Translations under genes and position numbers: made by a program
Source of the DNA: a virus
Taxonomy: Duplodnaviria > Caudoviricetes
Reading direction: 5' to 3' (one strand)
IMG/VR virus record: IMGVR_UViG_3300026549_000064
Span: 1 to 64,000 of that record
DNA length: 64,000 bases
Notes under the pieces: model-generated
Databases searched by the model: none
Seen by the model: the letters and a program-made list of their open reading frames with translations, nothing else
Told to the model about the DNA's origin: nothing
Shown here: piece by piece, positions 45,420 through 63,073 of the stretch
How positions within the stretch are numbered: the first letter of the stretch is position 1
Layout of the letters: every line of letters begins with the position of its first letter

Positions 45420-48400
45420 TTATATTCTCTTAGCTGTAGTTAGCGGAAACGAAGTAGTTATCGTTCTCCTTGTTTCTGTATTTTTTGATGTTTGAGCGGC
45501 TGGAGCATTGTTATTATTTTGTAATAACTGTGACAGCTGTTCACTCATAGCAGCAAATCCTTCTTTCATCGCGTTAACGATAACGTCTGCCAGATTTTCA
45601 GTTTTGTTGTGAACTGTAGGCTGGCTGACTGTTTCGTTACCACTCTTAGTTTCTGTAGGTTTAATAGATTTACAAATATCAGTAACTGAATTCTTAATTG
45701 CTTCAAGTATAGTACTCTGGTAATTGAGAGCCGCTAAGGTATTTGCACTTCCATTGTTTATTTCCGAGACACCGTTAGCTACGCTATTGGTAGTTATTTT
45801 CGGAGCATTAGTAGTAGCAGATTCAAGCTGTCGAGATGCTTGTTCAGTCGTAACTATTGCTTCAGTATCAGCAGTGCTTGCTGCAGATCTATCGGCTAAT
45901 AATTTTCGAGTTTCATTTCTATAACTATCAGGATATACGATACCTGACGTTGTTCCGTTTCTTCCAAGTATATTACCTATAACTCGAGCTATTTTTGATC
46001 CATATACAGAACGTATAGCATTAGTTACGAGTTTATTGAATCTTCCACCACCCTTGTGAGGTAGTACAGTTTCCGCTCCAGCTTCACCAATAGTTATATT
46101 GTCGAGATTGGTCTCAGCATCAACTACGCCACCACGTTGCAGTGCAAAAATACCACCATTAGCCATTTTTTTATGACCGTTAGTTTTATCTTTTGCTTGT
46201 GAAGTAGCGGCAGCGTTAGAGTCAGCTCCGCCGTTTAGTGCTAAGACTATTTTGGTTCTTTCTTCAGGTGTTACTGCGCCAGCCTTTTCGAATGCGAGAG
46301 ATGAGTCCAGTTCCTCTTGAATATATTGCGGCCATTCAGCTAATAGTTCTTTGGTATCTTTGGCAGTATCTAGAACATTTTTGGTGGCTGGATGATTTGG
46401 ATATTTTTCCAGTACTTTGATACAAAGATCAAGAGTTTCTAAAGCTTTATTGCTATATTTAAGATTCTGTTTATATTCAGCTGGTTTACGAGCACCGTAT
46501 ATTGGGTTGAGCTCATCGCTAAGTGATTTTATTTTCACACTGCAATCTTCACCCTTAATTTGCGGATATGGCCTAAATAGCTGGAGTTCATCAACTGTTG
46601 CTTCTAGGGCAGACACTACCTGTTCGATATTCTGCTGATCTTCTGCAGTGTATTCTTTATTCTGAGGTTGCATAACTCCAGATACAGATCCATTCGAAGA
46701 AGCAGTATCTGTTTGCTTAGCTTGTACAACTTCATCAGCTGAAGTATTTGAACCTGCGGCTAATTTAGTTGTTGATGAGAATCCGCCTGAGGTTATTCCA
46801 GGGACAGCTGAAGCTACGCTTGTCGGTTTTTGATCTTTAAGCTGCATAACTCCAGATACAGATCCATTCGAAGAAGCAGTATCTGTTTGCTTAGCTTGTA
46901 CAACTTCATCAGCTGAAGTATCTTTCTTATTATCAGTCTTGTCTTTAGCTTGTGAAGTAGTGACAGCATTAGAGTCAGCTCCACCGTTTTCGATATTCTG
47001 CTGATCTTCTGCAGTGTATTCTTTATTCTGAGGTTGCATAACTCCAGATACAGATCCATTCGAAGAAGCAGTATCTGTTTGCTTAGCTTGTACAACTTCA
47101 TCAGCTGAAGTATCTTTCTTATTATCAGTTTTATCTTTTGCTTGCTCAGCTTCTTTAAGTGCGTCAGGATCAGTCTTAGGTAACTCCTTTACCTCTTTCT
47201 TACCTTCTGCTATTTTTCTAATTTCATTAGCTTTAGAGCTTAGTTTGGCAGCATCTTTTTCTACATCAAGATCTTTAAGCTGCATAACTCCAGATACAGA
47301 TCCATTCGAAGAAGCAGTATCAGTTTGCTTAACCTGTATGGCTTTATCTACGGACGTACCAGAAGCTGTAGCTGAGCCTGCTGTTAGTGAATTTCCTGAA
47401 GTTATTCCAAGAGCTGCACCGGCTACACTTGTCGGTTTCTCATTGCTAGGCTGCGCAACTCCGGATACAGATCCATTGGAAGAAGCAGTGCTTGCCTGTT
47501 TAGCTTGTACGACTTCATCTATGGAAGTATCTTTCTTATTGTCGGTTTTATCTTGAGCTTGCTCGGCTTCTTTAACCGCTGCAGGATCGGTCTTAGGTAA
47601 TTCCTTTACCTCTTTCTTACCTTCTTCTACTGTTTTTTCTGCACCAGACTCTGACATAAGTGCTGAAATATCAGGAAGCTTACCGGGTTGCAGCTCGAAA
47701 TGCTGCGCTTCATTGAGTTTACCAGGCCTATACTTTCTGATAACACCAAGTGCCTTAAGATACGGCTCTAATTCATCAACAACAGTACCACGATCATAAG
47801 CTCTGTTCTTTATACCTCCGAAATTAGCATCGCCTAAATCTACAGCTATACCGGTTTCGTGCCTCGAGGTTCCAGGACGCGCAGCATCATTCGGATACTT
47901 CCGTTTGATGGCAGCTTGATCTGCGTAACTTCTGAATGCTGAGGTTATAGTCCACTGCTTAGCGTTCTTTCCTTTAGCATTTTCATACAGTTTACCAGCT
48001 AGATATAAACGTTTGATAAGTTCCGGATTGAGATGTGCTACGGAAATCCAGTTGCCACCGCCATATGACGTACTGGCACCTTTCATTGTACGTAAACTTC
48101 TGAGTTTAGCTAGAGCATCGAGACCATCCTTAGGTATTTCATCTGATGAAAGATGGAGATTTTCTGGTTTAAGTATTCCTTGGCCGTGAACATCTAAGAC
48201 AGTATTTCTAGAACTGTGTCCGCTGTAACTTGATGTACCTCCCGAAGTCAGATCAAGAGCAGCACCTGCTACACTTTGAATGCCGGAATCACTTCTGTCA
48301 GAACTAAATAGTTGATTAGATGATTCTTTTCCTGCGGCGCCTTCATTTTCAACGCTGTTTTTACCAACTTCTTTGTTTTGCGCAAGGGCTGCTTCAGTAT

Positions 48401-51400
48401 CTACCTTATTTACTTTACCTTTACCGAAAGTTTCGTACCATACGACAGCGTTTTGTGTACGATGCTGTATCTCTATTTGTCTTCTACTAGGATCAGGCCT
48501 CTCGAAATTCAGTAGAATAATTATAGCTGCATTTGTCGGACTCTGACAAGATTTAAGCTTACCAAGCGGATAAGTCATAAGACCATCGTCAAATTCCTTG
48601 CAGAGGTATTCTATCTGAACATCAGTATCACCTATCGATTTACCTTTACTGTGTGCAAAATCCCACAGTGCTTGCTTTCTAGACCAGTAAGTCCATTGAG
48701 CTAAACCGTAGCCACGTTGACTATCGATAAATGCTTGCCTATTGGCATCTTTCTCTTTGGTGTACCGTAGACTTTCCTGGCGATTTGGCTGTAGGTCGCC
48801 TTGAACACGTACGCACTCAATACCCGATTCCTGTTGAAGATTACCGAGCAATCCTGCAACCGCTGCTTCAGACCAGCCACGAGCTGTGAAGTATTTCCAA
48901 ATCTTAGCTGCTAGTTTACGTCTGTCGGCATCGTTAACGATAGCTTTAGCAGTTGCCGCATATTTACGATAAGTTTCGTTAGGATCTTCTCTACCAGTTA
49001 TTCTCTCATAAGTGTGAACAACTGTATCGGTGAAATTACCTTTGGTTGCACCCTTACCGGATTTCCGTGTGCCAGCTGCTCTTCCAAGAACTAAGTCGGC
49101 ATGACTAGGATTATAAGTAGCACCGCCTTCAGCATTTTCTTCTTCAGCATTATCGTTTTCTTCATCTAGAGGTTTCGGGAAGAAACGTTTGTATAGATTA
49201 AGTAAAATTAACTCTGTAGGAGTTAACTCGACGTCGCCTAATCCATATTTATCTAATCCTTTCCGCAGAAGTGCTCTAGTTGCTTTTCTGCCATTAAGTA
49301 TTTCATTTACAACACCAGCTGTCTTCGATCCGTATACAGAACGTATAGCGTTAGTTACAAGTTTATTGAATCTTCCGCCACCTTTGTGAGGCAGTACAGT
49401 TTCCGTTCCGGCTTCGCCAATAGTGATATTGTCAAGGTTAGTTTCGGCATTAACTACTCCGCCTCTTCCTACAGAGAAAACACCGCCGTTGGCCATCTTC
49501 TTGTGATCGCTAGTATCTGATTTCTCAGTATCTTCTATTCCCTTTTCTTTCTTGTAGACGAACCAGCTATTCATCGCGTCGCTTATAGGCAGATCATGTG
49601 CTTTAGCGTACTCGAAGATCTTGTCCATCTCTTTCTTATAGGCTTCTATTATATCAGGCGAAAGTTGTTTACGTGTTTCTTCGTTAGCGTATAATCTTCC
49701 AAAATATGAAAGAGCTTTTACTGAAGTTGACATATCTTTAGGATCTTCGTCATATTTAGATCCATTTTTCTTAGGCTTTGATCCGCCAGCACCGCCTTCA
49801 GCTTCTTTGGATGTATTTTTAGTCTCTTCAGCTTCTTCTGGCTTGTAACCAGCAGTTCCTTTCTTACTATAAACAGCGTGCCCTTTACTAGCGCGATTGT
49901 TAACTTTGTCTTCTTTAGCGTGGAATTTGTTGTATTCTTCTATAATTTTATCCACAGGTACAGCAAATGACCCAGCGCCTAAGTTAAAATCACGAAGATA
50001 TGTACGTGTAGCTTTAGCGCTCATCTTTTCAGATCTTGTTAAAAAGATAGTAAGCGCACCGAGTCGTTTAGCTTCTGGTATCTTTTCTGGATCAGGAAGT
50101 TTGTTTGTACTTTCATTGGCTATACTGTTAACACAAGTGGTGTAGAACGAGAATATAGGGTTAACAACATAAGCAACCCATTCTTTAACGATGTTATACC
50201 AGGTTTCTAATATATCTTTGAGCTCAAGTAAACGTTCCTGGTCTTTATCCATTTTTTCAACACGTTGCCCAAAACTGTTGTGATGAGCTGCGTGATCAAG
50301 ACGGGTACTAAGAAAAGAAATAGTGTAATCGCCAGGCCTTCTAACGTTATAGATAGCTGGATTCAAATAAGCTAAACGATCGTTTGTATGTTCTAATAGA
50401 TCATATATTTCGAGAGCGTAAGGATTTCCTGTTGTAAAGAATAGCATAACAGCTATTTTACTTATGTTATCCTCAAGCGAATCGCTGGTATGCTTTATCT
50501 GATATTCTAGTAAACTTTCTTCTAGATTCTTATTGTTAAAACCATCGCCTGGTTTGAGGCCAAATGCATTACAGAAATTAGCCAGCCATATTCCATTTTC
50601 TTTATCTTGAAAATTTGCATTCAGATATGCATTTGGAATGTTTCCGAGCAGATTTGAATATGCTTTTAGTCTAGCTAGCATGAATTTCTTTGTTATACTT
50701 GTTCCACCCAGTATAATAGATCTCCACTTTTCGGGTACTTTTTTGTCTTTATTATTAACACCTAAATATGCAGCTAGTGTATCAGAATCAGGCGCGTTGT
50801 TTAGTACAATAAGATCTTGACTAAGTTGATCAGCTGCTTTGTAAACAGCATTGATTACGCCTTTATCAGTATCTTTTTCATCAGAATCTGCTAACGGATT
50901 TATCTTCGATTTAAGTATTTCTTTAGTTTGCTTATTTTCGGTTGCTATAGCGGCTGCTGCAGCAGTGCCGTTAGGCGTAGCTACTTTGAGATTGCCGGCT
51001 GCTAATTGCTTAGCATATTCTTCCGATTCTTTAATGAAAAGATCCAGTCCTTTATCGCTTAGTTCGTATTTACTATATTTCTTAGAAACTTTAGATGCGA
51101 GCTCTTTGAAGGTTTTCATCGCATCTTCTCGATGCTCTTCTCTGATATCGTCAGGATTGAGTTTATTTAAGCCGATTAGATTTAGCAATCCATCATCTGC
51201 AACTCTTCCAGTATACATGTTGATTGTGGACACGTACTGAGAAAAGATCGGTATGAATACTTTCTCTATCCAAAAATTAAGATACTTTTTAGCATATTCG
51301 TTGCGTTTATCAGCAGCCTCTTTGTTACCGCCGTGCTTTTCATCGTATTCTTTTTGACGGTTTTCTTGATTCCGTATTTCTGCTAGAAGAGCACCGGCGC

Positions 51401-54400
51401 CTCCTCCTATGCTGTAAGTCCCATGTTTGTTCGCATAATTATTTGCTTTAGTCAGCGCGGCATCCATTGAACGTTCGGTGGGCCTAAGTAGCCCCATGGC
51501 AACGCCGAATTCTGTGATAGCATACTCAGATAAGTGTTTGCCTTCTTCGATTTGTTTGAGACCTTCGTTCTCGAGATTTTCGATAGCTAATCTTCTTGCT
51601 TTTTGTTTTTCTCCAGTGCCGAGAACATCTGGAATATGGTAAAACTTAAATCTTACTTCTTCCCACATAACTTTTTCGGTAGAACCGCCATCGAACCATC
51701 CGGTAAGAAGGTGACTTAACGAATCGGCCATGTCGGATATAGCTTTAGCAGCACCTTTAGCAAATTTCCTGAGGCCTCGTCCGAATGAAACTGCAGAGCC
51801 TTTGACATCTCCATCCCAGAGTTTCTTCCAAGAATCTCCAAATTCGTGGCCTACACCTCTAAAATCATCGGTGAGTTTTTCGCTAAGTGACTTAGTACGC
51901 TTATACGTAGTGGCACGGTCTATCGCCGATTTATCTATAGCCATAAACCATTTAGCGTATCCATCTACTGTAGGTATAAGATCAAATAACTTAAACTTTT
52001 TCTTATATTTAGCTGCTCCGGATTTGAACTGTTCAATCGTCTGAGATCTTAAATCACCCGGAACATCGTTGATGTGAGGTTTATCTCCAACGTTGGTTTT
52101 TGTTATAACACGCATTGCCTTTAAGTAGGACTTAAAGATCGGCATAAAGATCTTGCCCCACCAAGTTGCAACGTAATCTACCCTAGCATCTAGTGCTTCG
52201 GTTAGATCTCCGCCGAAATCTTTTATATGCTTTTGCATATCTTTTGTGGAGATTAGATCATCTGCTAATTCTTTTAGTTCGTCACGATCAAGATCAGGAC
52301 GTGCCTGATCGATGATAGGCATTGCTTTATCTTCGAGTGAAGTTATACGATCTAAGTCGTCTTCGGCTGCGAACATACCTCTCACGGCATGTGCTGCTAA
52401 TAGAGTTGCAGCGAGCGGTGCTGCAGCGTGCGGTATTAACGCAGCTGCTCCGATTGCGGCGCCAGTTGCTGTTTTTGTTAATGCATCAGTCTGTTTCACG
52501 CCGCTCTCTCTTTTCTTAAAGTTATATGCAACTAATTTAGCTTCGCGCCATGCGTGATCATATGCGTTTTCATCTGTGTTGGCTAAATCACCAGCTGTAT
52601 CTATAACGAATTTTGCGGCACCAGTCAAAGCTTGGGTGATGCCTTTAAGTCCAGCCCATAGGCCGTTGAGTACATTACCGTGCTTGATTTCATTCCAAGC
52701 ATAACTAAAGGTTTTACCAGAACGACCTAAATATTTGGATGCTTTGTTACCAAATTCTTTATTTTCTTTACGATGTCTTTCTTTGTCCTGGAAATCTTTG
52801 TGTGTTAATTTTTCACGTAGCCATTTAGCAAAACATTTCTTATTCGGAGCAAGATCCTTTAACACGCCGGTTGCATATTTAGCCAGTTTTCTATCAAGGA
52901 AAGTTTTGACAGCTTCAATGTTGTTTTGATCAACATCATCAGCTTTAGGCTGTTTACTGCCGTCGTTCTTAGTTACTTGGCAGAGAACTGTTACGTAGTC
53001 TCTATATGCCGGAAGGAAACGTGCTTTGTACCATTTCTTAAGATATTCTGTCTTATTCTCTTCATCCGAATCGCCTTCGGTATCGTAAAGACCTCCGGCT
53101 TCAGCTCCGCCAATAAAATCTATCTTTTCACCGAATTGCTCAAGACGTTTGTCGTCGACACCTTCCTGTTGATTCTTCCACGCTTCGTAAGTATCTGTTT
53201 CGAGATCTTCAAATGCTTCCCAGTTTTTAACGGTTAAACCATAAGCTTTAGCTCTAGGTATACGGAGTAGTTTAGTAGCTGCGCTGTCGGTTGCCCAGTT
53301 ATATACCTGGTAACCAATAGTACCTAGAGTAAGTGCCCAGCCTATAGGGCCGCCTAATATTCCAGCAGCTATTCTTCCGGTTAAACCGAGAAGTCCGCCG
53401 CCGAGTCTTAAAGCCATTCCGGCTGTGCCTAGTAAGGCTTTGCCGCCAAGACCTAAGATAGATCCAGCGGCTCTGCCTGCTAAGCCCAAGCCTTTCATTC
53501 CCAGTCCGCCTACAGTACGTGCGGCGCCTAGTACTCCTCGGCCAGCTGCGTGTCTTAGACGCATGCGGGCTAAACGAGCTTTGGCTTTAGCTCTTCTAGC
53601 GGCTTTACTGTTCTTGACTCGTTCTCTTACGTTATTAGCTCTGTTTCTTATACCTTCCTTAACTGAACCAGCTGCTCCGCTGAGTTTATCACTGACTGCT
53701 CCACCGAGAGCTTGTCCGCCGAATATTGCGCCTAGAGTGCTCCAGAATCCACCACCTTCGCTATCACCGGCTGAGTTATTCTCATCGGCTGCTTCAGCAG
53801 CAGCTCCTGCTGCACCGTTAGGCTCTCCATCTTCGGCCATCTTCTTTTTATCTTCTTCTTGCTTCTTCTTATTTGCTTCTCTTCTCTCTTTTACTTCTTT
53901 CTTATGCTCTTCTCTACGTTTCTTATAGTCGTAATACGACCCGTCTCTTAGGCCATTGCCATCATTGTCGCCGTTAACTTTTCCAGCCGGTAACCGTTCA
54001 TAGAGTAATCCATAAATGTCTAACAATCTATCGCCAACTATTTCAGATAGATCTTTTCTGGATATGCCTATACCAGTAAATGCAGTGACTACTGATGTAA
54101 ACGCTGAGGTGATGAAATTGCCTACGGCAGTTCCACCTTCACCTAGCAGTTTCAAACCGCCACTAAAGAGATCTACAGCTTTCCCAGCTGCAGTTTTAAG
54201 TAAACGCCCAGCGCCTTTTGCAAGTTTGATAGCACTCCTGCTTATCGCACCAAGTACTTTCATAGACGCGACGCCTACTTTACCAATTACTGAGGCTCCT
54301 CTAAATCTGGTTAACCTATTACCATCTACGTCATACACGCCCGCTTCGAGATCGTCACTATCGATGATGACCTTGTAACCCGAGTCAGTATTTTCGTAGA

Positions 54401-57400
54401 TCTCGTGTTCTATTAAGTATGCTGATGTAAGCGGCACCCATTTGCCGTTCTTCTTGTAAACATATTTTCTAGTTGATTTGTTATTCTCTAAGTCTTTACC
54501 AGCTATTACTCTCTTAAGATCTTTTGTGTTCTTATCAATAATGTAAACATCTATAAACGGATCTTTCTTTTCCCATAAAAACCTACTGTGTTCCTTAAGG
54601 AATTTTCCAGCATCAGCTATTTTACCAGGAATATTGAACGTAATGTTACTAATTATAGTGCCAGCTCTACGAGCTTTAGCAGCGAATCTGGACAAAAATG
54701 TAGACTTGATAGGCGTACCGTCAGCAAATATAAGTCCATCTCCTTCAGCGATATCTTCTGTAGAGATAACCATATTGCCGACAGCTTCTTTATCTTTATC
54801 CCAGAGATAGCAAGGGCCTTTGATATCGTAAACTGTAGGTACTTTGTTTCCTTTGACGTCTACTACTAAGCCGTCACGGAATGCTTCACCAGATACCAAC
54901 GGTTTAGACTTATCTTTTTGACGAGAACTATAAACGTCGTCATAAGCTCTTGATAAACCAGAGTATGTCTGTGAAACTCCGCCGGTTACTTTGTCGGTTA
55001 CAGTAGTCGCAAGATTTTTAAGTTTCTCTATCGGTTTAATTTCTTTGATATAGTCTCTGACGCTATCGATGATATCGCCACCGATCTTCAGAGCGCTGTG
55101 CCCTGCACCGCCGAGCTTAGAACCTAGCCAACTAAGTTTCTCTCCATTTTTATCTAGTAATTCTTTTCCGGTAGCAGCTGTGTAGACAGCACTCATGCCT
55201 AGTTTGACAGCTTCAGACAATCCGAGAGCGGTTGCTTTAACGGCGGCTACGACAGGATCGATGAAGATAGTCTTAAATTTCTCAGGCAATACATCGTCAA
55301 GTGATATCTTGTCAATGATTACCTTTCTATCTTTAACACTATCTTTAATTACACTAACATTCTTAGATATAGTTTCTAGTAATCCAGTTACTCTACCGCC
55401 ATATTTAGAATCAGAGTGGTTGTTAACAGTAGTGTTGACTGCCGACGATCTTGACTCGTTAATGTTTGTTGTATTGTAGTATTTTTCAAGCTGCTTAGAA
55501 AAAGTATCGACAAATGTCCGATTATTTTCTTTAAGAATATTAGAGACGATTGATTGAACGTTAGCTGAATCGAAAGCACTTTCCTGCCTAGCTCTATTGT
55601 TTTTGTCAGTAGCCGATTTTTTATGCGCAACAGTATCAATTAGTCTGCTGATGCCGCTTTGGATATCGAGCAGAGTACGGTTTCTAGTCTGAGCAAGACG
55701 TACAAGATTACTAACCAGTTTACGGTTATCGTAAGTCGTTATACGAGCATTTATAGTACCGCCTGCAGAAGAATTAGGCTCAGCTGTATTAGGGCTAAAT
55801 GTAACCCCATCTGAAGACGATTCTTGTGCATTAGTATTTTTCGGTTTGGAATCTATGGAAGTATCTAGCGAAGATTGAGCTTTGCGTATAAGATCGATAG
55901 ATTCTTGGCTTGCACCTGCTTCGAAATCAGCGTGAACAGCATCGGCTGCAGCCTGATCGTTGCCAGAAGCTTTAGCGTTGAGCTCTTTTGCATAAGCTTC
56001 GCTGACTTTAATTGAATCTAATTCATCGGGGTGGGCTTGGAAATATCTAAGCCATTTTCTTGCTGTGTTTGGTAATTGATTTAAGAAACCGATAAACGAT
56101 ACGTTGTCATCGAATTTCTCAAGCAGTTTTTTCTTATTTTTTACAGACGCTAGCCATTTAAGAATATCTACGTCTCTGATATTCTTTTTATCACGCATAA
56201 CTCCGTTTTCTTTATCTTCAAGGAATACGCTGATATCGCCGAGCGAATCGTCAATACTTGAGAGAATACGGAGAAGGCTTTGACCTCCGAGGTTAATTAT
56301 CTTATCGTTTGCTTTGTTAGCTAAGCTTTTAATCTTATCAAAACTACCGTCTGTTAGAGCAATGACCCAGTTGAAAAGAGGGTTTCTGTACATTGCCACT
56401 AGCTTAGGTCTAAATTTAGGATCTTTAATAGCGTCTATTAGAGTTTTGCCTGGATGCTTTTCTAGGTAGTTATCAATGACCGTTTTGAAATTATTGTTTT
56501 CGTAATATGCGGTTTCTAGATCACGATCAAGTTTTTCTTGCTTTTTTAGAGTTTTCTCACGATCGTTAGATTTTTGTAATTCTTTAAGGCGGGCTCCTTC
56601 GGAAGCTAGATCTTCTTTAGTAGCGCGTAGATCTTTGATATCACGTGATCCACCGTAATTACGTTCCACCAAACGTAAAGCTTGGTTACGTTCAATATCC
56701 CAGCTTCCATAGGCGTTACGGTGTATGATACCCATTTTCTCTAATTGAGAAGCATTACCGTTTTTGATCTCGCCATAAATAACTTCTTCCAGACGGGAAT
56801 TTGCTTCAGATCTATACTTCCAGATCTGTATCCACATTAAGTCAGCTGTTTTAGTGTTGAGTACATGTTCATACGGAGTACTATTGTCGTCATCAGGCCC
56901 TTTAGGTTTTTCTAGAACACGAATAAACCACTTTACAACAGGTAATACGTTTTCGGCAGCGATACTGGTAAATGCAGCCTGGAAGAGATCATTTTTCTGG
57001 AAATCATTCTTTCCAGCTTCAATGCTACTACGAATATCCCAGAGATCGTTTAGAACATCTTGCATGAGTTCTTCACGCTCACTGTCGATATCGTAATCGC
57101 CAACAGCGATGCCAGTTAAAACTTTAGTGATATCATCTGCGTGTTTCTGAAGTTCTCCGTTAATTTCTTGATACAGTGCATCGTTTCCGTTATCGAAAAC
57201 GGAATTGATCAGCTTCTGCGTATCAAGAACTTTAACTTTCTTTTCGTACATCATCTGGCTGTCGCCGCCAGATATATCTCTGATCAGCTGTTGTCTATAA
57301 TCTACTCCGGCAACTAGTTTGCCTTGTTTATAATCCCATTCAAGCTCTGTTGCATTTTTGTCACCAGTTGCCAGCATCTCGAGATACTTAGTTTGCGTCT

Positions 57401-58838
57401 TGAGATACGACGGGATAATTTGTTCTATGGTTAGAGTGGTGCGATTGGTAAGTTTACCACCTTGATCTAGCGTATCGTAATCTACATTGTTAGTAACGGT
57501 ATTCTGTTTATCAAGTATGCCTTCGGTCATGGTGCCGATGGTGCGCTGTAAATCTGGCGGTAAATTTTTGAGTAAGCCGCCTCTTGACATATAGTGCAGT
57601 ACAAACGGCAAAGTGTTGCCACCCAGTTGGGTAGCATTTTCTATCATAAGCCGGGTTCTTTCATCTAGCCCGCCACTTACGCGTTCTATTAAACGTTTAC
57701 CGAATTGTTTAGATGCTTTCTTGATACCCCAACCAGTTAGCATTCTTGGTATAGACCACCAGTTGAATTCCTGAGGTTTACCTTCGAAATCATTCTGCAT
57801 TTCGAGGGCATCGCTCATCATATCCATCATCTGCTGGCCCATGCCCAGTTTATCTAGGAAAGGCTCAATATAATTTTCTTTTATGTTACCGGCCATTTTA
57901 CCAAAGTAACCCGTGAGTTTTCCACCCATGGTACCCAGTAGGCCTTCTTTTATTTTTTTACTTATCAGTTCTGATGTAGTAATTTTGTCAGCTTCAGGAA
58001 GCGCTGTGTTCTTTACAATAGCGTCTAATCTTTCCTGAAGCATCTTGGCAGTTAGCTTAAATGATTCTAGTGTATCTTCTGTGGCATACAGCTGCTTATA
58101 TTTTAATTCCAGATCTTTCTTAAGATAAGCAGTGAATGTTCCTCTGATGAATGCTGTTTGGTAAGTAGCCTGATTACGAATGATGCTGAGTATACCAGCA
58201 GTTTCTCTATGATGTATCTGACCTATACGTCTATCGAAGGTTTTCTCTAATACAGCTTGCTTTTTATCCTCGATACGTTGTTCCTGTTCTGCGCCAAAGA
58301 TGCTAGCTAACGCATTAGACTGGCTCTCATCGCGTATCTGATCTTTACTTTTTTCTTCGTAACCGCCTTCGTCAGGGTTATGAATTTTATCTATTAGAGA
58401 AACAATTTTCTTATCAAGATGAAAAGGCAGTCTTCCTTCAAGGCTAGTTGCTAATTTTCTAGCACTGCGCATGGTAGCGTTGTACGCAGGAACAATTTTG
58501 TCAATAGATTCACTGCGAAGTGTATCCATTTCAGATATAAGATCTTTGCCACCTTCGTAGAGGCTAGATACACTTGGCATACTCTTGTCGAGCTGTTCTC
58601 TTATACCGCTACTTGCGCCATCGTAGGCATTTGTACTAACGTTATCAAGATCTAGGCCGATATTGTGCAATCCTTGGGATATAGGATTTCTGTTTTTCTT
58701 GGAGACTTCCGGATTGTCTTCATAACCGAAGTCGCCACCCATGTCAAGATCTAACGCAGAGTCTAAGTTCTCATCATCAAAATCTTTATTTGCGTCTCTA
58801 GTGCTAGGATCTTTATCCTTACTGTCAAACCAACTCAT
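45420..58838 (-). CDS. Giant tape-measure / tail peptidoglycan hydrolase (phiKZ gp181-like), 4472 aa
   Basis: Long helical and glycine-rich regions; phage-lysozyme-2-like domain (AGLLGNLQQES..GYGLAQWT, ~48425-48930); M15 peptidase (SAFRS..Q..GTSRHETGIAVD..EAQHFE, ~47690-48035); adjacent to RNAP beta-prime. Confidence 0.88.
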   Translation of the reverse strand: MSWFDSKDKDPSTRDANKDFDDENLDSALDLDMGGDFGYEDNPEVSKKNRNPISQGLHNIGLDLDNVSTNAYDGASSGIREQLDKSMPSVSSLYEGGKDLISEMDTLRSESIDKIVPAYNATMRSARKLATSLEGRLPFHLDKKIVSLIDKIHNPDEGGYEEKSKDQIRDESQSNALASIFGAEQEQRIEDKKQAVLEKTFDRRIGQIHHRETAGILSIIRNQATYQTAFIRGTFTAYLKKDLELKYKQLYATEDTLESFKLTAKMLQERLDAIVKNTALPEADKITTSELISKKIKEGLLGTMGGKLTGYFGKMAGNIKENYIEPFLDKLGMGQQMMDMMSDALEMQNDFEGKPQEFNWWSIPRMLTGWGIKKASKQFGKRLIERVSGGLDERTRLMIENATQLGGNTLPFVLHYMSRGGLLKNLPPDLQRTIGTMTEGILDKQNTVTNNVDYDTLDQGGKLTNRTTLTIEQIIPSYLKTQTKYLEMLATGDKNATELEWDYKQGKLVAGVDYRQQLIRDISGGDSQMMYEKKVKVLDTQKLINSVFDNGNDALYQEINGELQKHADDITKVLTGIAVGDYDIDSEREELMQDVLNDLWDIRSSIEAGKNDFQKNDLFQAAFTSIAAENVLPVVKWFIRVLEKPKGPDDDNSTPYEHVLNTKTADLMWIQIWKYRSEANSRLEEVIYGEIKNGNASQLEKMGIIHRNAYGSWDIERNQALRLVERNYGGSRDIKDLRATKEDLASEGARLKELQKSNDREKTLKKQEKLDRDLETAYYENNNFKTVIDNYLEKHPGKTLIDAIKDPKFRPKLVAMYRNPLFNWVIALTDGSFDKIKSLANKANDKIINLGGQSLLRILSSIDDSLGDISVFLEDKENGVMRDKKNIRDVDILKWLASVKNKKKLLEKFDDNVSFIGFLNQLPNTARKWLRYFQAHPDELDSIKVSEAYAKELNAKASGNDQAAADAVHADFEAGASQESIDLIRKAQSSLDTSIDSKPKNTNAQESSSDGVTFSPNTAEPNSSAGGTINARITTYDNRKLVSNLVRLAQTRNRTLLDIQSGISRLIDTVAHKKSATDKNNRARQESAFDSANVQSIVSNILKENNRTFVDTFSKQLEKYYNTTNINESRSSAVNTTVNNHSDSKYGGRVTGLLETISKNVSVIKDSVKDRKVIIDKISLDDVLPEKFKTIFIDPVVAAVKATALGLSEAVKLGMSAVYTAATGKELLDKNGEKLSWLGSKLGGAGHSALKIGGDIIDSVRDYIKEIKPIEKLKNLATTVTDKVTGGVSQTYSGLSRAYDDVYSSRQKDKSKPLVSGEAFRDGLVVDVKGNKVPTVYDIKGPCYLWDKDKEAVGNMVISTEDIAEGDGLIFADGTPIKSTFLSRFAAKARRAGTIISNITFNIPGKIADAGKFLKEHSRFLWEKKDPFIDVYIIDKNTKDLKRVIAGKDLENNKSTRKYVYKKNGKWVPLTSAYLIEHEIYENTDSGYKVIIDSDDLEAGVYDVDGNRLTRFRGASVIGKVGVASMKVLGAISRSAIKLAKGAGRLLKTAAGKAVDLFSGGLKLLGEGGTAVGNFITSAFTSVVTAFTGIGISRKDLSEIVGDRLLDIYGLLYERLPAGKVNGDNDGNGLRDGSYYDYKKRREEHKKEVKERREANKKKQEEDKKKMAEDGEPNGAAGAAAEAADENNSAGDSEGGGFWSTLGAIFGGQALGGAVSDKLSGAAGSVKEGIRNRANNVRERVKNSKAARRAKAKARLARMRLRHAAGRGVLGAARTVGGLGMKGLGLAGRAAGSILGLGGKALLGTAGMALRLGGGLLGLTGRIAAGILGGPIGWALTLGTIGYQVYNWATDSAATKLLRIPRAKAYGLTVKNWEAFEDLETDTYEAWKNQQEGVDDKRLEQFGEKIDFIGGAEAGGLYDTEGDSDEENKTEYLKKWYKARFLPAYRDYVTVLCQVTKNDGSKQPKADDVDQNNIEAVKTFLDRKLAKYATGVLKDLAPNKKCFAKWLREKLTHKDFQDKERHRKENKEFGNKASKYLGRSGKTFSYAWNEIKHGNVLNGLWAGLKGITQALTGAAKFVIDTAGDLANTDENAYDHAWREAKLVAYNFKKRESGVKQTDALTKTATGAAIGAAALIPHAAAPLAATLLAAHAVRGMFAAEDDLDRITSLEDKAMPIIDQARPDLDRDELKELADDLISTKDMQKHIKDFGGDLTEALDARVDYVATWWGKIFMPIFKSYLKAMRVITKTNVGDKPHINDVPGDLRSQTIEQFKSGAAKYKKKFKLFDLIPTVDGYAKWFMAIDKSAIDRATTYKRTKSLSEKLTDDFRGVGHEFGDSWKKLWDGDVKGSAVSFGRGLRKFAKGAAKAISDMADSLSHLLTGWFDGGSTEKVMWEEVRFKFYHIPDVLGTGEKQKARRLAIENLENEGLKQIEEGKHLSEYAITEFGVAMGLLRPTERSMDAALTKANNYANKHGTYSIGGGAGALLAEIRNQENRQKEYDEKHGGNKEAADKRNEYAKKYLNFWIEKVFIPIFSQYVSTINMYTGRVADDGLLNLIGLNKLNPDDIREEHREDAMKTFKELASKVSKKYSKYELSDKGLDLFIKESEEYAKQLAAGNLKVATPNGTAAAAAIATENKQTKEILKSKINPLADSDEKDTDKGVINAVYKAADQLSQDLIVLNNAPDSDTLAAYLGVNNKDKKVPEKWRSIILGGTSITKKFMLARLKAYSNLLGNIPNAYLNANFQDKENGIWLANFCNAFGLKPGDGFNNKNLEESLLEYQIKHTSDSLEDNISKIAVMLFFTTGNPYALEIYDLLEHTNDRLAYLNPAIYNVRRPGDYTISFLSTRLDHAAHHNSFGQRVEKMDKDQERLLELKDILETWYNIVKEWVAYVVNPIFSFYTTCVNSIANESTNKLPDPEKIPEAKRLGALTIFLTRSEKMSAKATRTYLRDFNLGAGSFAVPVDKIIEEYNKFHAKEDKVNNRASKGHAVYSKKGTAGYKPEEAEETKNTSKEAEGGAGGSKPKKNGSKYDEDPKDMSTSVKALSYFGRLYANEETRKQLSPDIIEAYKKEMDKIFEYAKAHDLPISDAMNSWFVYKKEKGIEDTEKSDTSDHKKMANGGVFSVGRGGVVNAETNLDNITIGEAGTETVLPHKGGGRFNKLVTNAIRSVYGSKTAGVVNEILNGRKATRALLRKGLDKYGLGDVELTPTELILLNLYKRFFPKPLDEENDNAEEENAEGGATYNPSHADLVLGRAAGTRKSGKGATKGNFTDTVVHTYERITGREDPNETYRKYAATAKAIVNDADRRKLAAKIWKYFTARGWSEAAVAGLLGNLQQESGIECVRVQGDLQPNRQESLRYTKEKDANRQAFIDSQRGYGLAQWTYWSRKQALWDFAHSKGKSIGDTDVQIEYLCKEFDDGLMTYPLGKLKSCQSPTNAAIIILLNFERPDPSRRQIEIQHRTQNAVVWYETFGKGKVNKVDTEAALAQNKEVGKNSVENEGAAGKESSNQLFSSDRSDSGIQSVAGAALDLTSGGTSSYSGHSSRNTVLDVHGQGILKPENLHLSSDEIPKDGLDALAKLRSLRTMKGASTSYGGGNWISVAHLNPELIKRLYLAGKLYENAKGKNAKQWTITSAFRSYADQAAIKRKYPNDAARPGTSRHETGIAVDLGDANFGGIKNRAYDRGTVVDELEPYLKALGVIRKYRPGKLNEAQHFELQPGKLPDISALMSESGAEKTVEEGKKEVKELPKTDPAAVKEAEQAQDKTDNKKDTSIDEVVQAKQASTASSNGSVSGVAQPSNEKPTSVAGAALGITSGNSLTAGSATASGTSVDKAIQVKQTDTASSNGSVSGVMQLKDLDVEKDAAKLSSKANEIRKIAEGKKEVKELPKTDPDALKEAEQAKDKTDNKKDTSADEVVQAKQTDTASSNGSVSGVMQPQNKEYTAEDQQNIENGGADSNAVTTSQAKDKTDNKKDTSADEVVQAKQTDTASSNGSVSGVMQLKDQKPTSVASAVPGITSGGFSSTTKLAAGSNTSADEVVQAKQTDTASSNGSVSGVMQPQNKEYTAEDQQNIEQVVSALEATVDELQLFRPYPQIKGEDCSVKIKSLSDELNPIYGARKPAEYKQNLKYSNKALETLDLCIKVLEKYPNHPATKNVLDTAKDTKELLAEWPQYIQEELDSSLAFEKAGAVTPEERTKIVLALNGGADSNAAATSQAKDKTNGHKKMANGGIFALQRGGVVDAETNLDNITIGEAGAETVLPHKGGGRFNKLVTNAIRSVYGSKIARVIGNILGRNGTTSGIVYPDSYRNETRKLLADRSAASTADTEAIVTTEQASRQLESATTNAPKITTNSVANGVSEINNGSANTLAALNYQSTILEAIKNSVTDICKSIKPTETKSGNETVSQPTVHNKTENLADVIVNAMKEGFAAMSEQLSQLLQNNNNAPAAQTSKNTETRRTITTSFPLTTAKRI
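46623..47625 (-). repeat. Mosaic of in-frame direct repeats in the tape-measure C-terminus
   Basis: QTDTASSNGSVSGVMQ-type unit five times; EGKKEVKELPKTDP twice; QPQNKEYTAEDQQNIE twice. Confidence 0.92.
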
Positions 58839-58852
58839 AATGGAATACCCTC

Positions 58853-59677
58853 CTACTTGTTACTGCCGGTACTTACATCGAATGATGCGAATAAGAAATG
58901 GCACACTGTGTTCAACGCAATTTCAGTAGTTTTGAATATGAGATCTACTGTTTCTTTGTCAGCGAAATTAACGTTGTATCGTTGCCATTGGTGAAGTATA
59001 CTGTCGTCGCAACAGTATGGCGCATATATCTGCGCTAGACTCATTGACATATCTTGGAATAGAGGCTTGTAGATACGGCCTTTTGGATCAAGTTCATAAC
59101 TGATGTCATCTAAAAATAGTACATCAGTTGTTTTCCACTCATTCTCTGATATTTCTCTGGGATCTTTCCGAATAAAATCGATAGTCGCAATATTCTCTAC
59201 TTGACTAAGTAGTATATTACGATAAGCCTCCATCAATCTATTCGTTTGGAGAGGAAAGATATTTACCGTTACATGAATTTTTTCAGTAGCTTTAACGCGG
59301 TTATTATTCATGCGAAGAATACGCAATATAGCAGGAAGTGATCCTGACAACGATGTATCCGGACTACGGTTGAACAGATCTTCACCGTATTTAGGATCAG
59401 TATACATTTGCTTATAATCTTTTTCTTTGTATTTGAGTTTAGGAAAGGCAAATGTAAAACTGCGATTGGGCTTGAGCATGTATTGTTTTAGATTGGCAAT
59501 TACATAAGGAAGTGCTTCCTTATCAGTAGCTAGTATAAGTCCAAGTCTGGTATCTTTAAGTAAAGGTAAATCTATATATACTTTCTGAACAGCATGGAAT
59601 TTACTGTACATGATAGCTTCGTTAACTTTGTTGATGAGATCATCGTGTTTAGCAACAAAATCAGAAAATGCGCTCAT
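58853..59677 (-). CDS. Hypothetical protein
   Basis: 274-aa ORF between the tape-measure and RNAP genes. Confidence 0.8.
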   Translation of the reverse strand: MSAFSDFVAKHDDLINKVNEAIMYSKFHAVQKVYIDLPLLKDTRLGLILATDKEALPYVIANLKQYMLKPNRSFTFAFPKLKYKEKDYKQMYTDPKYGEDLFNRSPDTSLSGSLPAILRILRMNNNRVKATEKIHVTVNIFPLQTNRLMEAYRNILLSQVENIATIDFIRKDPREISENEWKTTDVLFLDDISYELDPKGRIYKPLFQDMSMSLAQIYAPYCCDDSILHQWQRYNVNFADKETVDLIFKTTEIALNTVCHFLFASFDVSTGSNK

Positions 59678-59790
59678 GATAATTACCTAATCTAAATTTG
59701 TTAAAAGCTTATAAATTGTGCGTCATCGAATGGCGCATGGTGTATTATTTATATATGATATAAATCATTAAACTTAAATGGGAGATGCTT

Positions 59791-61914
59791 ATGGCTAAGT
59801 TAGCACCGTTTAACATAACCATGATAGATCCAGACGAATACGTTCAGCGTAAGCAGTGTTTGCCCGTATCATCTAACGCAATGTATGAGTCGTCTACCGA
59901 AAGATTCCATCCAGATGGACTGTATTCTGAAGTTATATTTGGCCAGTTAGGATCAAGAGAAAGATTGATACGTCGTGGATTTATGTATCTTAGGACTACT
60001 CTTGTTTCGCCACATCTTTACCGGCAGATCATGACTCTCAAAGGGTTTTATAAAGATATTGCTGCTGGTAAGCAGTATGCTTACTTTGACCCTAAGTTAA
60101 AAGACTTCGTAAGAACGTCCAGAGATGATCCTGATTCAGATACAGGATACCAATTCTTTGTATCTAAATTAGATAAGATAGAGTTTCAAAAAACTAATTC
60201 AGCGCAGCGTAATGATAAAATTACCTTAATCAAAAAATATAAGGATCGTTTATTCATTACTAAATTTATTATTCTTCCAGCAGCTCTTCGTGACGTTAGA
60301 ATAAACAACGGCAGACCTGAATCAGAAAAAATTAACAAGTTATATCTTAATCTGTTAGCTCTTACTAAATCATTACCTGATTCTGGAGCAGATGATCCTA
60401 TTTTTGATCCTATTCGGTTTCAGATGCAGAATAAGCTTCAAGAGATTTACGAATACATTCGTAACATGATAGATGAGAAGCATGGTTTCGCTCAGGGAAG
60501 ATATGCTGCGAGAGACATTGTTTACGGATCGCGTAACGTTATAACCTCACCGTTGGTAACTGAAACTAAATCTCCTACAGCACCTGACGTGTTTAGTATA
60601 GACGAGGCTCTTATTCCTTTGTTTGAAGGATTAAAGGCATTAGTTCCAGTAATAGTTAATGTGATGACCACTAAGCTTTTAGCTACTGTATTTAGTGGTG
60701 ATCAGTCTCGTACAATTCCTCTTATAAATGCTAAGACGCTTAGACAAGAATATGTTGAGGTTGACGATAAAACCATTGAGAGATTTACTACGCCAGATGG
60801 AATAAACGATATCATTAATGATTTCCGTGATAATTCCATGCATTTTAAGCCGGTTACACTTAAACCAGCTAAGGCAGCTTTGGCTGATGGATATGCCGCT
60901 GATGAGTATTATCTCTTTATGATTTATGACGACGGTGATACTGTTTATCAGTTTAGAGACTTGGAAGAATTTAAGCAGGCTTACGCTAGAACAGATAGAT
61001 ATCGCGATGATAACCCGTATACACATGTGCTCGATAATTATCCGCCGGAAAATTATATAATTGAGGGTACTGGCGCTTTAAGAGCTCACGGCATGGACAT
61101 CGATCCTCAGGATCTCGATGTTATCATGAAGCCTGATATGTATCAGCATTTTCTTGAAGTAGCTAAAGCACAAAATGTTACTCCTGATGAATTTGGCGAT
61201 TATGAAATTCATGTAGATAATGTAGAAATTCACATGAAGAATAATTGTTATCAAATCAAGACTGATGCTGACTGGGAGAAACTTAAGAGCGAACAAGGTA
61301 TACAGATAGGGCAGCATTATTATATTAAGCCTGAAGTCATGTCAGCCAGATATAAAGCTATAGAAGCTAAAGGCGGTAGACTCAAGGATAAAAGAAAACT
61401 AGAGTTTTATAAGTCTATTATCTTTGATGAGTCTAAAGTTAGACCTATGACTTATATTGAGCTGATGTATATAGCTTGCTCGTCAGCGATTAAGGGTAAA
61501 CACTTCACTGTAACAAGATATCCTGTATTGAATATGTACAACATTTATCCAGTTAAGGGGCATCTCATATCAACTGAGCCAAGTAGAGTAGTGAAATATG
61601 TATTTGCTCTTAGACCTGAATTGAGTGTAACTTTAAGTTCGTATCCAATTATGGGAGCGGTATCTAAACAATCGTTGTCAGTTCATCCTGCTACGTTGGG
61701 CCATTTGGATGCCGACCACGATGGCGATACCATGAGTTTACTTCCTATCTTGTCTGAAGATGCCAATAAAGAAGTGGCTGATTTCATGCAGTCAACTGCT
61801 TCTATACTGGATGAGAGTGGTAACTTAATTTGGGGATTGACAGCAGGTGGCCAGAGTGTGGTTGTTCCAGTAACTCTGTTCTTCTGTACTTATAGACCTA
61901 TAGAACAAAAATAA
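59791..61914 (+). CDS. Multisubunit RNA polymerase beta-prime N-terminal/catalytic fragment (virion RNAP, phiKZ gp180-like) with an inserted domain
   Basis: DGLYSEVIFG, IILPAALRD, GSRNVIT, TRYPVL, catalytic DADHDGD (61708-61728); ATG 59791 has SD GGAG. Confidence 0.92.
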   Translation: MAKLAPFNITMIDPDEYVQRKQCLPVSSNAMYESSTERFHPDGLYSEVIFGQLGSRERLIRRGFMYLRTTLVSPHLYRQIMTLKGFYKDIAAGKQYAYFDPKLKDFVRTSRDDPDSDTGYQFFVSKLDKIEFQKTNSAQRNDKITLIKKYKDRLFITKFIILPAALRDVRINNGRPESEKINKLYLNLLALTKSLPDSGADDPIFDPIRFQMQNKLQEIYEYIRNMIDEKHGFAQGRYAARDIVYGSRNVITSPLVTETKSPTAPDVFSIDEALIPLFEGLKALVPVIVNVMTTKLLATVFSGDQSRTIPLINAKTLRQEYVEVDDKTIERFTTPDGINDIINDFRDNSMHFKPVTLKPAKAALADGYAADEYYLFMIYDDGDTVYQFRDLEEFKQAYARTDRYRDDNPYTHVLDNYPPENYIIEGTGALRAHGMDIDPQDLDVIMKPDMYQHFLEVAKAQNVTPDEFGDYEIHVDNVEIHMKNNCYQIKTDADWEKLKSEQGIQIGQHYYIKPEVMSARYKAIEAKGGRLKDKRKLEFYKSIIFDESKVRPMTYIELMYIACSSAIKGKHFTVTRYPVLNMYNIYPVKGHLISTEPSRVVKYVFALRPELSVTLSSYPIMGAVSKQSLSVHPATLGHLDADHDGDTMSLLPILSEDANKEVADFMQSTASILDESGNLIWGLTAGGQSVVVPVTLFFCTYRPIEQK

Positions 61915-61982: not shown

Positions 61983-62294
61983 TTAGTCCTTGGCAGTCAG
62001 CATCATGTAATATTTAGATGGGGCCTCGTAGGCCCACTGTAAAAGGGAGGAGGCAAGCTCCTCCCAAAACCCCGAGAGGCCTTCCGCTCCCTTGGCTGCC
62101 TGGAAGGCAGCGCATACAGCGCTGTCCTCCAGTACCCTGCAGTACATCCAGGCGGATGTCCTGGAACGATAAACGGAGTCAATCCGCTTATTGTTCTTGA
62201 CGTCCTCCTTGTACTGTAGGAAGACCCTGCGGCCTACGTTAGTGGCAGTAACTGCCACAACAGCTTTGAGCGTTAAAAGTTTTTCATTATTCAT
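61983..62294 (-). CDS. Small GC-rich gene behind an early promoter
   Basis: SD AGGAG, promoter motif at 62349, own terminator near 61920. Confidence 0.8.
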   Translation of the reverse strand: MNNEKLLTLKAVVAVTATNVGRRVFLQYKEDVKNNKRIDSVYRSRTSAWMYCRVLEDSAVCAAFQAAKGAEGLSGFWEELASSLLQWAYEAPSKYYMMLTAKD

Positions 62295-62348
62295 AATAAA
62301 TTTCTCCTAATAAATTTATGTTACTAGATTAAATCTAGCTCCATTTAA

Positions 62349-62358
62349 GTAATATATA
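62349..62358 (-). promoter_or_regulatory. Putative early promoter TATATATTAC
   Basis: gtaatatata on +. Confidence 0.7.
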
Positions 62359-62440
62359 ACTGTTTTTTTTTGAATAGCTTTGCCGATAGAACAAAAATAA
62401 AAAAAAGAAAGGCCGCGATGTTGCTACGGCCTCTCCCGTT

Positions 62441-62668
62441 TTATCTCTCTACTGCCTGCAGTGCTGCAAGGCAGATATCGAGATCGCAAGATGAAAATCT
62501 CATGCGCAGCCGATAAGCTGCGTCACGGATTTTTTCGTCATTTATTTTTCCAGCTTCGCAGAGGCGATAGACTGCCTCCGCGATATTCTTTATCCTGCGG
62601 GCAACAGCGTCGCGCCGTGCCGTTGTTTCGGGGTTGAATGCCCCGTTTTCAATGGAGAATGCCGACAT
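62441..62668 (-). CDS. Small GC-rich gene behind an early promoter
   Basis: Start at MSAFS (SD GAGG), promoter motif at 62743, terminator near 62410. Confidence 0.75.
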   Translation of the reverse strand: MSAFSIENGAFNPETTARRDAVARRIKNIAEAVYRLCEAGKINDEKIRDAAYRLRMRFSSCDLDICLAALQAVER

Positions 62669-62742
62669 AAGCACCTCTTAGGTTTGAAATAAATGAGTCT
62701 CAGATAGAGTTCTTGATGTCTCATATCTTCTCATTCACCCCG

Positions 62743-62818: not shown

Positions 62819-63073
62819 ATGAAAATACATATTAAATTTTCTAAAGATAACGATACTGATGAAAATGCTATTAGTTATTTTGAAATGATGACCGCAACAA
62901 AAGCTGGTACTTTAGGACTATTGCCAGTTGATGAAATTGTGGTAGATGCTAGCTCAGTACCAGTATCTTTTTATAAAGAGTGGTTTTGTTATAAAGTCAA
63001 TAAGTATTCTAAACCCACTCTTCAGTTTAGTCCTAAACTCTATGCTAAATTTAATAAGAAACAAAAATCTTAA
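62819..63073 (+). CDS. Hypothetical protein
   Basis: 84-aa ORF, SD GGAG. Confidence 0.65.
   Translation: MKIHIKFSKDNDTDENAISYFEMMTATKAGTLGLLPVDEIVVDASSVPVSFYKEWFCYKVNKYSKPTLQFSPKLYAKFNKKQKS

Follow-up and report, generated by a model that had tools for sequence, protein, structure and literature searches.

A predicted nucleotidyltransferase domain in the virion RNA polymerase of an uncultured phiKZ-like phage

In phages phiKZ and SPN3US, the virion RNA polymerase (vRNAP) assembles prior to packaging, is packed into the head and ejected into the host, and tolerates large fusions; about 3000 molecules of its subunit gp180 later accumulate in the cytoplasm. Fluorescent-protein fusions to gp180 and gp149 were packaged and injected, and in phiKZ about ten injected vRNAP copies transcribe in a lipid early phage infection (EPI) vesicle (PMC10612078; bioRxiv 10.1101/2024.03.24.586471). 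Accessory enzyme domains on virion-packaged RNA polymerases (RNAPs) are known from phage N4, with peptidase and ADP-ribosyltransferase (ART) domains fused to the vRNAP in polyvalent proteins (PMC5512222), and from group-1 Bacillus phages, with an HD domain on the C-terminal subunit of RNAP beta (PMC7824862). Here we describe a 64,000-nucleotide stretch of viral DNA (the window; positions 1 to 64,000 of IMG/VR record IMGVR_UViG_3300026549_000064) in which a gp180-type vRNAP subunit bears an additional domain, predicted to be a nucleotidyltransferase (NTase) of the Pol-beta superfamily (Table 1). Unlike the N4 and Bacillus phage examples, this case involves another enzyme class, a multisubunit two-barrel RNAP, and five recurrent fusion sites that include a loop of a catalytic subunit.

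The inserted domain and its polymerase

We assign the product of the gene at 59785-61914 to the gp180-type vRNAP subunits because it matches phrog_2986 (E = 1.3e-132, in two stretches; phrog_2987, E = 1.3e-7), shares 34% identity with KTN4 gp220 (a protein annotated virion-associated beta/beta'), is encoded divergently from the gene for a giant structural lysozyme, as in KTN4, and yields a predicted model that aligns to beta'N of the nvRNAP (non-virion RNAP) from AR9 (structural Z score 19.4) and to residues 15-504 of E. coli beta' (Z 16.2). The catalytic aspartate triad of this subunit is D644, D646, and D648. A phmmer search of the full 709-residue protein against the PDB gave no match, and no virion RNAP structure was among the structure-search matches of the full protein. 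With phiKZ gp180 and SPN3US gp240 (PHROG 2986), the subunit shares the sequence family, the DxDGD-type motif, the vRNAP-specific segment inside the barrel (PMC7824862), and gp181-like synteny; it differs from them by an NTase of ~145 residues in a loop of 8-16 residues elsewhere.

The limits of the insert were defined by alignment with gp180 homologues, which showed that the segment is not ordinary gp180 sequence. In the window protein, the anchors FRDLEEF and VRPMTY are 155 residues apart. Among 118 homologues this spacing is 130-163 residues in 52 clusters with the insert and 8-16 residues in 66 without it; most gp180 homologues lack the domain, as do all cultured ones that were aligned. The net excess of about 140-147 residues agrees with the ~145 extra residues that an earlier note on this DNA had placed between FRDLEEF and VRPMTYIELMY. 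Since the insert is also present in close relatives at 87, 81, and 72% identity, and since both junctions are crossed by contigs from independent DNA and RNA libraries with no joint that skips the insert, we can rule out an assembly chimera. The G+C content of the insert (0.35-0.38) matches that of the RNAP gene.

An AlphaFold2 (AF2) model of the insert, computed with 48 sequences, has a pLDDT of 95.3 and a pTM of 0.90; the model of the full 709-residue protein has a pTM of 0.67. Foldseek ranked TM1012 first for the insert model (E = 2e-4), and a wide structural search aligned 129-136 residues with TM1012 (Z 10.7), LnuA (Z 9.8), MenT1 (Z 9.7), and ANT(2'') (Z 9.5); the top rows from VIA-align were NTase-fold entries. 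These Z values for a predicted model are moderate, and they are independently backed by a sequence profile that places TM1012 first, albeit weakly (E = 0.04), and by the ESM Atlas, where the insert matches a cluster of putative nucleotidyltransferases (0.97). The poly(A) polymerases of poxvirus and Megavirus gave Z 6.0 and 5.5, and cGAS/DncV-like nucleotidyltransferases (CD-NTases) appeared far down the list (Z 2.3-2.8); the 145-residue domain is too small to hold their C-terminal helical lobe. Searched alone against Pfam and PHROG, the insert gave sub-threshold matches only (DUF7277, E = 0.009). No DUF1814/AbiEii/MenT Pfam match was found among 24 inserts at E<=0.5 or among 48 proteins, and no insert matched PF10706 (Aminoglyc_resit), a family matched only by the distant relative P0255 and one second-tier Atlas row.

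All three motifs that Kuchta et al. describe for the Pol-beta superfamily (PMC2794190) are present in the insert as G428-T429, D443-x-D445, and E481. The motif I/II segment runs from I425, which starts at 61057, to M448, which ends at 61128, with the carboxylate pair in the context D443-L-D445-V. E481 is located on model strand 84-88 and aligned with the matching Glu strand of TM1012; GRLKD corresponds to G531-D535 at 61375-61389. The earlier note had given the same positions for the motif segment and GRLKD, and had named a later NVEIH strand between them. Of the hG[GS] motif that it cited for the superfamily, the glycine (G428) is there and the next residue is threonine (T429) rather than glycine or serine, a conservative variant: this residue is serine in 24 and threonine in another 24 of the 52 inserts. 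We conclude that the insert is, by prediction, a member of the Pol-beta-fold NTase superfamily with three carboxylates. The fold comparison that the earlier note had suggested thus returned a Pol-beta fold, and its proposal of a complete Pol-beta NTase fused into a gp180-type vRNAP subunit is upheld by this fold and by all three carboxylates. Because the insert is predicted to fold in this way and its motif columns are conserved among the 52 inserts, a chance motif match can be ruled out.

The closest structures, TM1012 (2ewr), LnuA (4wh5), and ANT(2'')-Ia (4xje), resemble the insert over the whole domain (root-mean-square deviation (rmsd) 3.5-4.0) and share hG[GS], DhD, and the third carboxylate, but they are only 8-12% identical to it, and the insert is fused into an RNAP. 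The tRNA-modifying toxins MenT1 and AbiEii (DUF1814) share the N-terminal Pol-beta motifs and a C-terminal KD (MenT1: rmsd 3.4 over 134 residues); the insert differs from them in its smaller size and in that no antitoxin-like partner was identified. Fused copies have Tyr where many stand-alone relatives have Lys, and KDxxK instead of KDxxD; these positions may correspond to K189 and D211 of MenT3. Poxvirus VP55 and the poly(A) polymerases of Mimivirus and Megavirus have a related NTase fold (Z 5.5-6.0) and add nucleoside monophosphates (NMPs) in connection with viral transcription; unlike the insert, they are large multidomain proteins that are not fused to RNAP, and they match it less well than the small transferases do.

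At 15-50% overall identity among the inserts, the motif glycine, D443, D445, and KD are the best-conserved columns (G428 in 49, D443 in 42, D445 in 46, and D535 in 47 of 52 inserts). The third carboxylate is Asp or Glu in 35 of 54 loop inserts versus 61 of 70 stand-alone members of the family, in which the two residues of the Asp pair are kept in 70 and 69 of 70 sequences. The earlier expectation that the pair would be conserved among homologous inserts therefore holds for most of them; about one-fifth of the loop copies lack a catalytic Asp and yet retain the domain (P0044, P0048-P0051, P0046, L115). The catalytic residues of the window's own copy are intact, and the full triad is present in all six gp178- and gp149-fused copies that were compared. 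Between the window and L008, the nonsynonymous rate (dN) is 0.058 for the insert and 0.089 for the polymerase core, with a synonymous rate (dS) above 1.2; among close relatives, dN of the insert is 0.06-0.25 at dS >1.2 or saturated, like that of the core. By these comparisons, purifying selection on the insert is as strong as on the polymerase core.

When the protein is aligned by profile with E. coli beta' (probability 95.8), the insert falls in the stretch that takes the place of the dock; the RNVI and TRYP anchors on either side correspond to E. coli beta' residues ~352 and ~425. This stretch of the vRNAP greatly exceeds the bacterial dock in length, and within it the alignment is weak. In bacteria, the RNA exit channel is bordered by the dock. 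Iyer et al. described a vRNAP-specific alpha+beta insert inside the barrel (PMC7824862), and the NTase insert sits within it.

We can reject an intein, since the segment has an NTase fold, contains no Hint or endonuclease domain, and lacks C/S/T...HN termini, the absence of which the earlier note had already remarked. A self-splicing intron can be rejected as well, since the insert is open in frame and RNA-library contigs X1, X17, and X18 span the junctions without joints; these contigs may include DNA, and the junction evidence is supporting only. Elsewhere in this gene, the sequences of many relatives are consistent with introns at the DHDG catalytic motif, where the window's gene is uninterrupted: matches in P0005, P0016-P0022, P0037, P0045, L104, L113, L114, and others stop at this motif or extend over a longer DNA span. 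Five insert-less gp180 homologues (P0062, P0063, P0064, L025, L119) have intein-like insertions with C...D-T/S termini straight after the catalytic DGD or DGN, and that of P0064 matches the LAGLIDADG family PF14528. At G000:C1:65528-67974, a conserved minus-strand gene appears as two frames (220 and 494 residues) about 300 bases apart, possibly separated by an intron.

Table 1. Positions of the insert, its motifs, and related features (window coordinates unless a genome is named)
Feature	Position	Strand	Basis
gp180-type virion RNAP beta-prime N-terminal subunit, 709 aa, bearing the insert	59785..61914	+	phrog_2986, KTN4 gp220 identity, model alignment
Whole inter-anchor segment holding the predicted NTase domain	60973-61437	+	FRDLEEF/VRPMTY anchors
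Inserted minimal Pol-beta nucleotidyltransferase domain (predicted), ~aa 407-549	61003..61431	+	alignment, fold, profiles
Motif I/II: G428, T429, G436, metal-binding D443-L-D445 (predicted)	61060..61119	+	conservation counts, PMC2794190, TM1012 alignment
Third carboxylate E481, VEIH strand (predicted)	61225..61227	+	model strand E84-88; TM1012 alignment
C-terminal helical motif: Y523, R532-x-K534-D535-x-x-K538	61351..61398	+	conservation counts
RNAP catalytic motif DADHDGD, aa 642-648, intact, uninterrupted	61708..61728	+	gene translation
Conserved divergent neighbor, 274 aa, phrog_3328; synteny marker, outside the fusion	58853..59677	-	profile match, relatives' loci
gp181-like structural peptidoglycan hydrolase, 4472 aa; synteny marker of the gp180 locus	45420..58838	-	synteny with relatives
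NTase cassette in G001 gp178-type beta	G001:C1:232504-232926 (L193:398-4417)		family match

Fusion sites and stand-alone relatives

By sequence comparison, one NTase family is fused to vRNAPs at five sites on three subunits, which is a new finding of this work. Besides the internal loop of gp180 (site 1), these are the gp180 C-terminus (site 2: L116:1570-3663, P0141, P0140), an internal position in the gp178-type beta subunit (site 3: P0129, P0142, P0191, P0242, G001), the gp178 C-terminus (site 4: P0216), and the N-terminal side of a gp149-type subunit (site 5: P0139). The complete 287-kb genome G001 contains exactly two matches to the family, one in gp180 and one in gp178. P0124 and P0125 carry the NTase at both gp180 positions, with an intact copy in the loop and a degenerate one, which has lost DxD, at the C-terminus; tandem duplication as their origin can be rejected since the two copies are not sisters. 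Further domains lie next to the NTase in P0191, P0142, P0229, and P0139.

A single event cannot account for five distinct fusion junctions. In a polymerase tree computed with the insert removed, a clade of 54 rows (99% support) has the loop insert throughout; the loop insert also occurs in two of the four members of the clade with C-terminal fusions, and in P0228 and P0229 beside an insert-less sister. Approximately unbiased (AU) tests, run on 33 and 39 rows selected by hand, with groups named after the trees had been seen and with a short domain alignment, rejected a single clade for the loop-bearing RNAPs (p = 5e-91) and for the fused NTase domains (p = 7.9e-8). On these trees the gp180 loop seems to have received an insert on more than one occasion; a single gain with later losses, or exchange of domains, is a possible source of the pattern.

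The internal site of gp178 behaves as a variable cassette, which measures 47-52 residues when empty and 202-432 when filled. In the gp178-like protein of G002 (L192:2338-3369, minus strand, 1905 residues), the same site holds two unrelated domains, the first of which resembles DUF6886 in the Atlas and is, we assume, possibly ADP-ribosyltransferase-like. [SAG]xE motifs stand on both cassette flanks in G001 and P0129, whereas P0191 has a single one, on the C side; the G002 cassette is preceded by two and followed by a looser GLE-D, and the cassettes of P0142 and P0242 lack flanking motifs. The prohead proteases of SPN3US and phiKZ cleave after AxE or SxE (PMC10052503, PMC5694885). Because the [SAG]xE flanks resemble such sites, some of the gp178 cassettes may be excised inside the phage head. 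No C-flank protease motif was found in any of 65 gp180 loop inserts, none of which is therefore flanked on both sides. For this reason the window's NTase should remain on the polymerase, as the earlier note had supposed from the absence of intein termini. As a separate observation, the gp178-like gene of G001 is split into frames of 1339 and 404 residues near DDxKR (G001:C1 ~233900-234200; L193:4417-4678), at the position of known vRNAP beta introns, where P0129 and P0142 end too.

A profile search of 1.84 billion representatives returned 633 relatives at E<=1e-3, and among the 150 listed most are free proteins of 125-200 residues. This stand-alone family corresponds to PHROG 12854 (weakly DUF7277) and matches the insert with a profile-profile probability of 99.9; it differs from the insert in consisting of free proteins and in keeping the Asp pair more strictly than the loop copies do. 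Phage EL encodes two members (NC_007623 132818-133767, L199) upstream of, and adjoining, its NAD-dependent DNA ligase gene: gp120 has intact motifs, and the adjacent gp121 is partly degenerate with the first Asp only. The profile search of cultured phages matched these two proteins and none in phiKZ or 201phi2-1, and tblastn searches of cultured phages with two members of the domain family found nothing; similar small proteins of RP12, RSF1, PhiEaH1, 201phi2-1, Phabio, and Noxifer are listed in BFVD. No characterized member of the stand-alone family was found in the literature searched, and a genomic-context search for the stand-alone proteins P0148 and P0127 found no loci. A free homologue near the window's subgroup lies on a 122-kb contig among small unannotated genes that give no functional clue. 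The NTase domain is somewhat promiscuous, because fusions outside RNAP exist, each kind seen once: to a LigD 3'-phosphoesterase (P0150), a P-loop kinase (P0184), an inorganic pyrophosphatase (P0259), SET and GNAT domains (P0230), a methyltransferase (P0234), and radical SAM (P0252).

The surrounding locus

By sequence, the 85-kb source contig is a partial phiKZ-like genome. The RNAP gene is present in bovine-gut and other gut sequencing runs from several studies, and the syntenic counterparts of the 4472-residue gene in relatives match the lysozyme family PF18013. Neither gp178 nor gp149 was found on this partial contig. A single-sequence search for chimallin (ChmA), which nucleus-forming Chimalliviridae encode, with phiKZ gp54 in four related records, run without a positive control, gave no match, and window positions 9272-10933 are not similar to phiKZ gp54. 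Within the C-terminal region of the 4472-residue tail protein, a TDTASSNGSV-type unit is repeated imperfectly over a long stretch (window 46700-47600). Directly 3' of the RNAP gene, the stretch 61983-62700 reaches a G+C content of up to ~0.5 and shows strain indels and loose ends; it is followed by a Dam-type adenine methyltransferase gene at 62946-63887.

Possible roles of the fused domain

Both parts of this protein, the Pol-beta NTase and the gp180 vRNAP, are of known kinds, and enzyme-bearing virion RNAPs have precedent. Their combination was undescribed as far as the earlier note could tell, and we likewise found no description of an NTase fused to a multisubunit RNAP in the literature searched, most subscription journals being outside that search. 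Taking the active-enzyme readings together, we consider it probable that the domain is catalytic; its activity, substrate, and timing in this phage we infer.

The account that we favor, though we give it slightly less than an even chance, is that the insert is an active NMP-transferase for which the vRNAP serves as packaging and injection vehicle, and that it plays an accessory part early on, with an RNA 3'-hydroxyl as its most probable acceptor. A catalytically competent Mg-dependent enzyme would be attached to the vRNAP as cargo, assembled with it, packed into the head, and ejected with the DNA. If the vRNAP takes this route as in phiKZ and SPN3US, the NTase would be delivered ahead of any phage protein synthesis. 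In the host, it would move an NMP from a nucleoside triphosphate (NTP) to a hydroxyl acceptor, of which an RNA 3' end would be the likeliest and a protein or small-molecule hydroxyl less likely. Its role would be accessory, in host takeover or counter-defense, and would lie outside RNA chain synthesis. We read the domain as cargo because the fusion sites are scattered, because the gp178 cassette is exchangeable and sometimes flanked by cleavage-like motifs, and because N4 vRNAP and the HD-domain polymerases offer precedents; the five sites on three subunits favor a delivery vehicle over a position-specific role at the loop. Several observations weigh against this account. The loop inserts lack the C-flank protease motif, so the window's copy stays on the polymerase, and the gp180 loop was apparently filled more than once, so position may matter. 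The first Asp is gone in 11 of 54 loop copies versus none of 70 stand-alone members, and the fusion partners outside RNAP are heterogeneous. Because phiKZ vRNAP transcribes inside the EPI vesicle, a similar enclosure would limit the access of the NTase to host targets.

Several of these points would suit a co-transcriptional RNA-end enzyme instead, that is, an NTase tethered near the RNA exit that acts on early transcripts of the phage itself, by tailing, repair, or capping, for stability, export, or translation. We regard this as the main alternative, though less likely than not. The insert lies in the segment replacing the dock, is not releasable, is fixed in the well-supported 54-row clade, and occupies a loop used in two other lineages; poxvirus and giant-virus poly(A) polymerases have a related fold, and phiKZ vRNAP is enclosed together with its transcripts, the export of which is an open question. 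However, there are four further fusion sites, some of which have cleavage-like flanks, the NTase has no RNA-binding accessory domain, and most gp180 homologues, including all cultured ones aligned, do without it. Proximity to the exit, moreover, would depend on a profile alignment that is weak within a segment far longer than the dock, in a protein whose full model reaches only the pTM given above. The stronger form of this idea, a DNA-dependent RNAP with a built-in enzyme that tails or caps the emerging early mRNA, a need that would have driven repeated recruitment to different subunits, seems to us unlikely.

The degenerate copies raise the question of whether the fold is kept merely as a structural or binding module, for assembly, packaging, or the binding of nucleotides or RNA. 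The retention of the domain in the loop copies that lack a catalytic Asp, and the degenerate C-terminal copies of P0124 and P0125, would fit such a role; we nevertheless judge it improbable in view of the conservation of D443, D445, the glycine, and KD above all other columns, the full triad in the gp178 and gp149 copies, and the intact copy in the window. That the enzyme makes or consumes a nucleotide signal (a cyclic or linear oligonucleotide, or NpnN) rather than modifying a macromolecule has a slim chance of being correct. The Pol-beta superfamily includes the CD-NTases, and a pyrophosphatase is fused to one stand-alone relative and a P-loop kinase to another, but the CD-NTases match the insert far less well than the hydroxyl-acceptor transferases (Z 9.5-10.7), and the small domain seems to have no room for the C-terminal helical lobe. 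Least credible of all is a selfish mobile element of intein or intron type living off a conserved gene: although inteins and introns do settle at the catalytic motif in the RNAP genes of these phages, and several sites carry the domain, the insert has an NTase fold, lies in frame without splice joints in a variable surface loop rather than in a conserved motif, and is under purifying selection.

Which proteins phiKZ-like phages inject, and what these do in the first minutes, is an open question. The 145-residue, well-folded domain with its obvious catalytic mutant offers a testable entry to it, and gp120, the free homologue of the cultured phage EL, a second. The fusion sites also map natural cargo-tolerant positions on the vRNAP. 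An injected NMP-transferase effector would be new, and so would a bacteriophage RNA-end modifier tethered to RNAP; a built-in transcript modifier, if true, would be the phage counterpart of the RNA-processing enzymes in poxvirus virions. The repeated fusion of one uncharacterized NTase family to three vRNAP subunits points to an early activity favored by selection, and suggests that uncultured giant phages of the cattle rumen and other habitats open their infections with an enzyme activity as yet undescribed.

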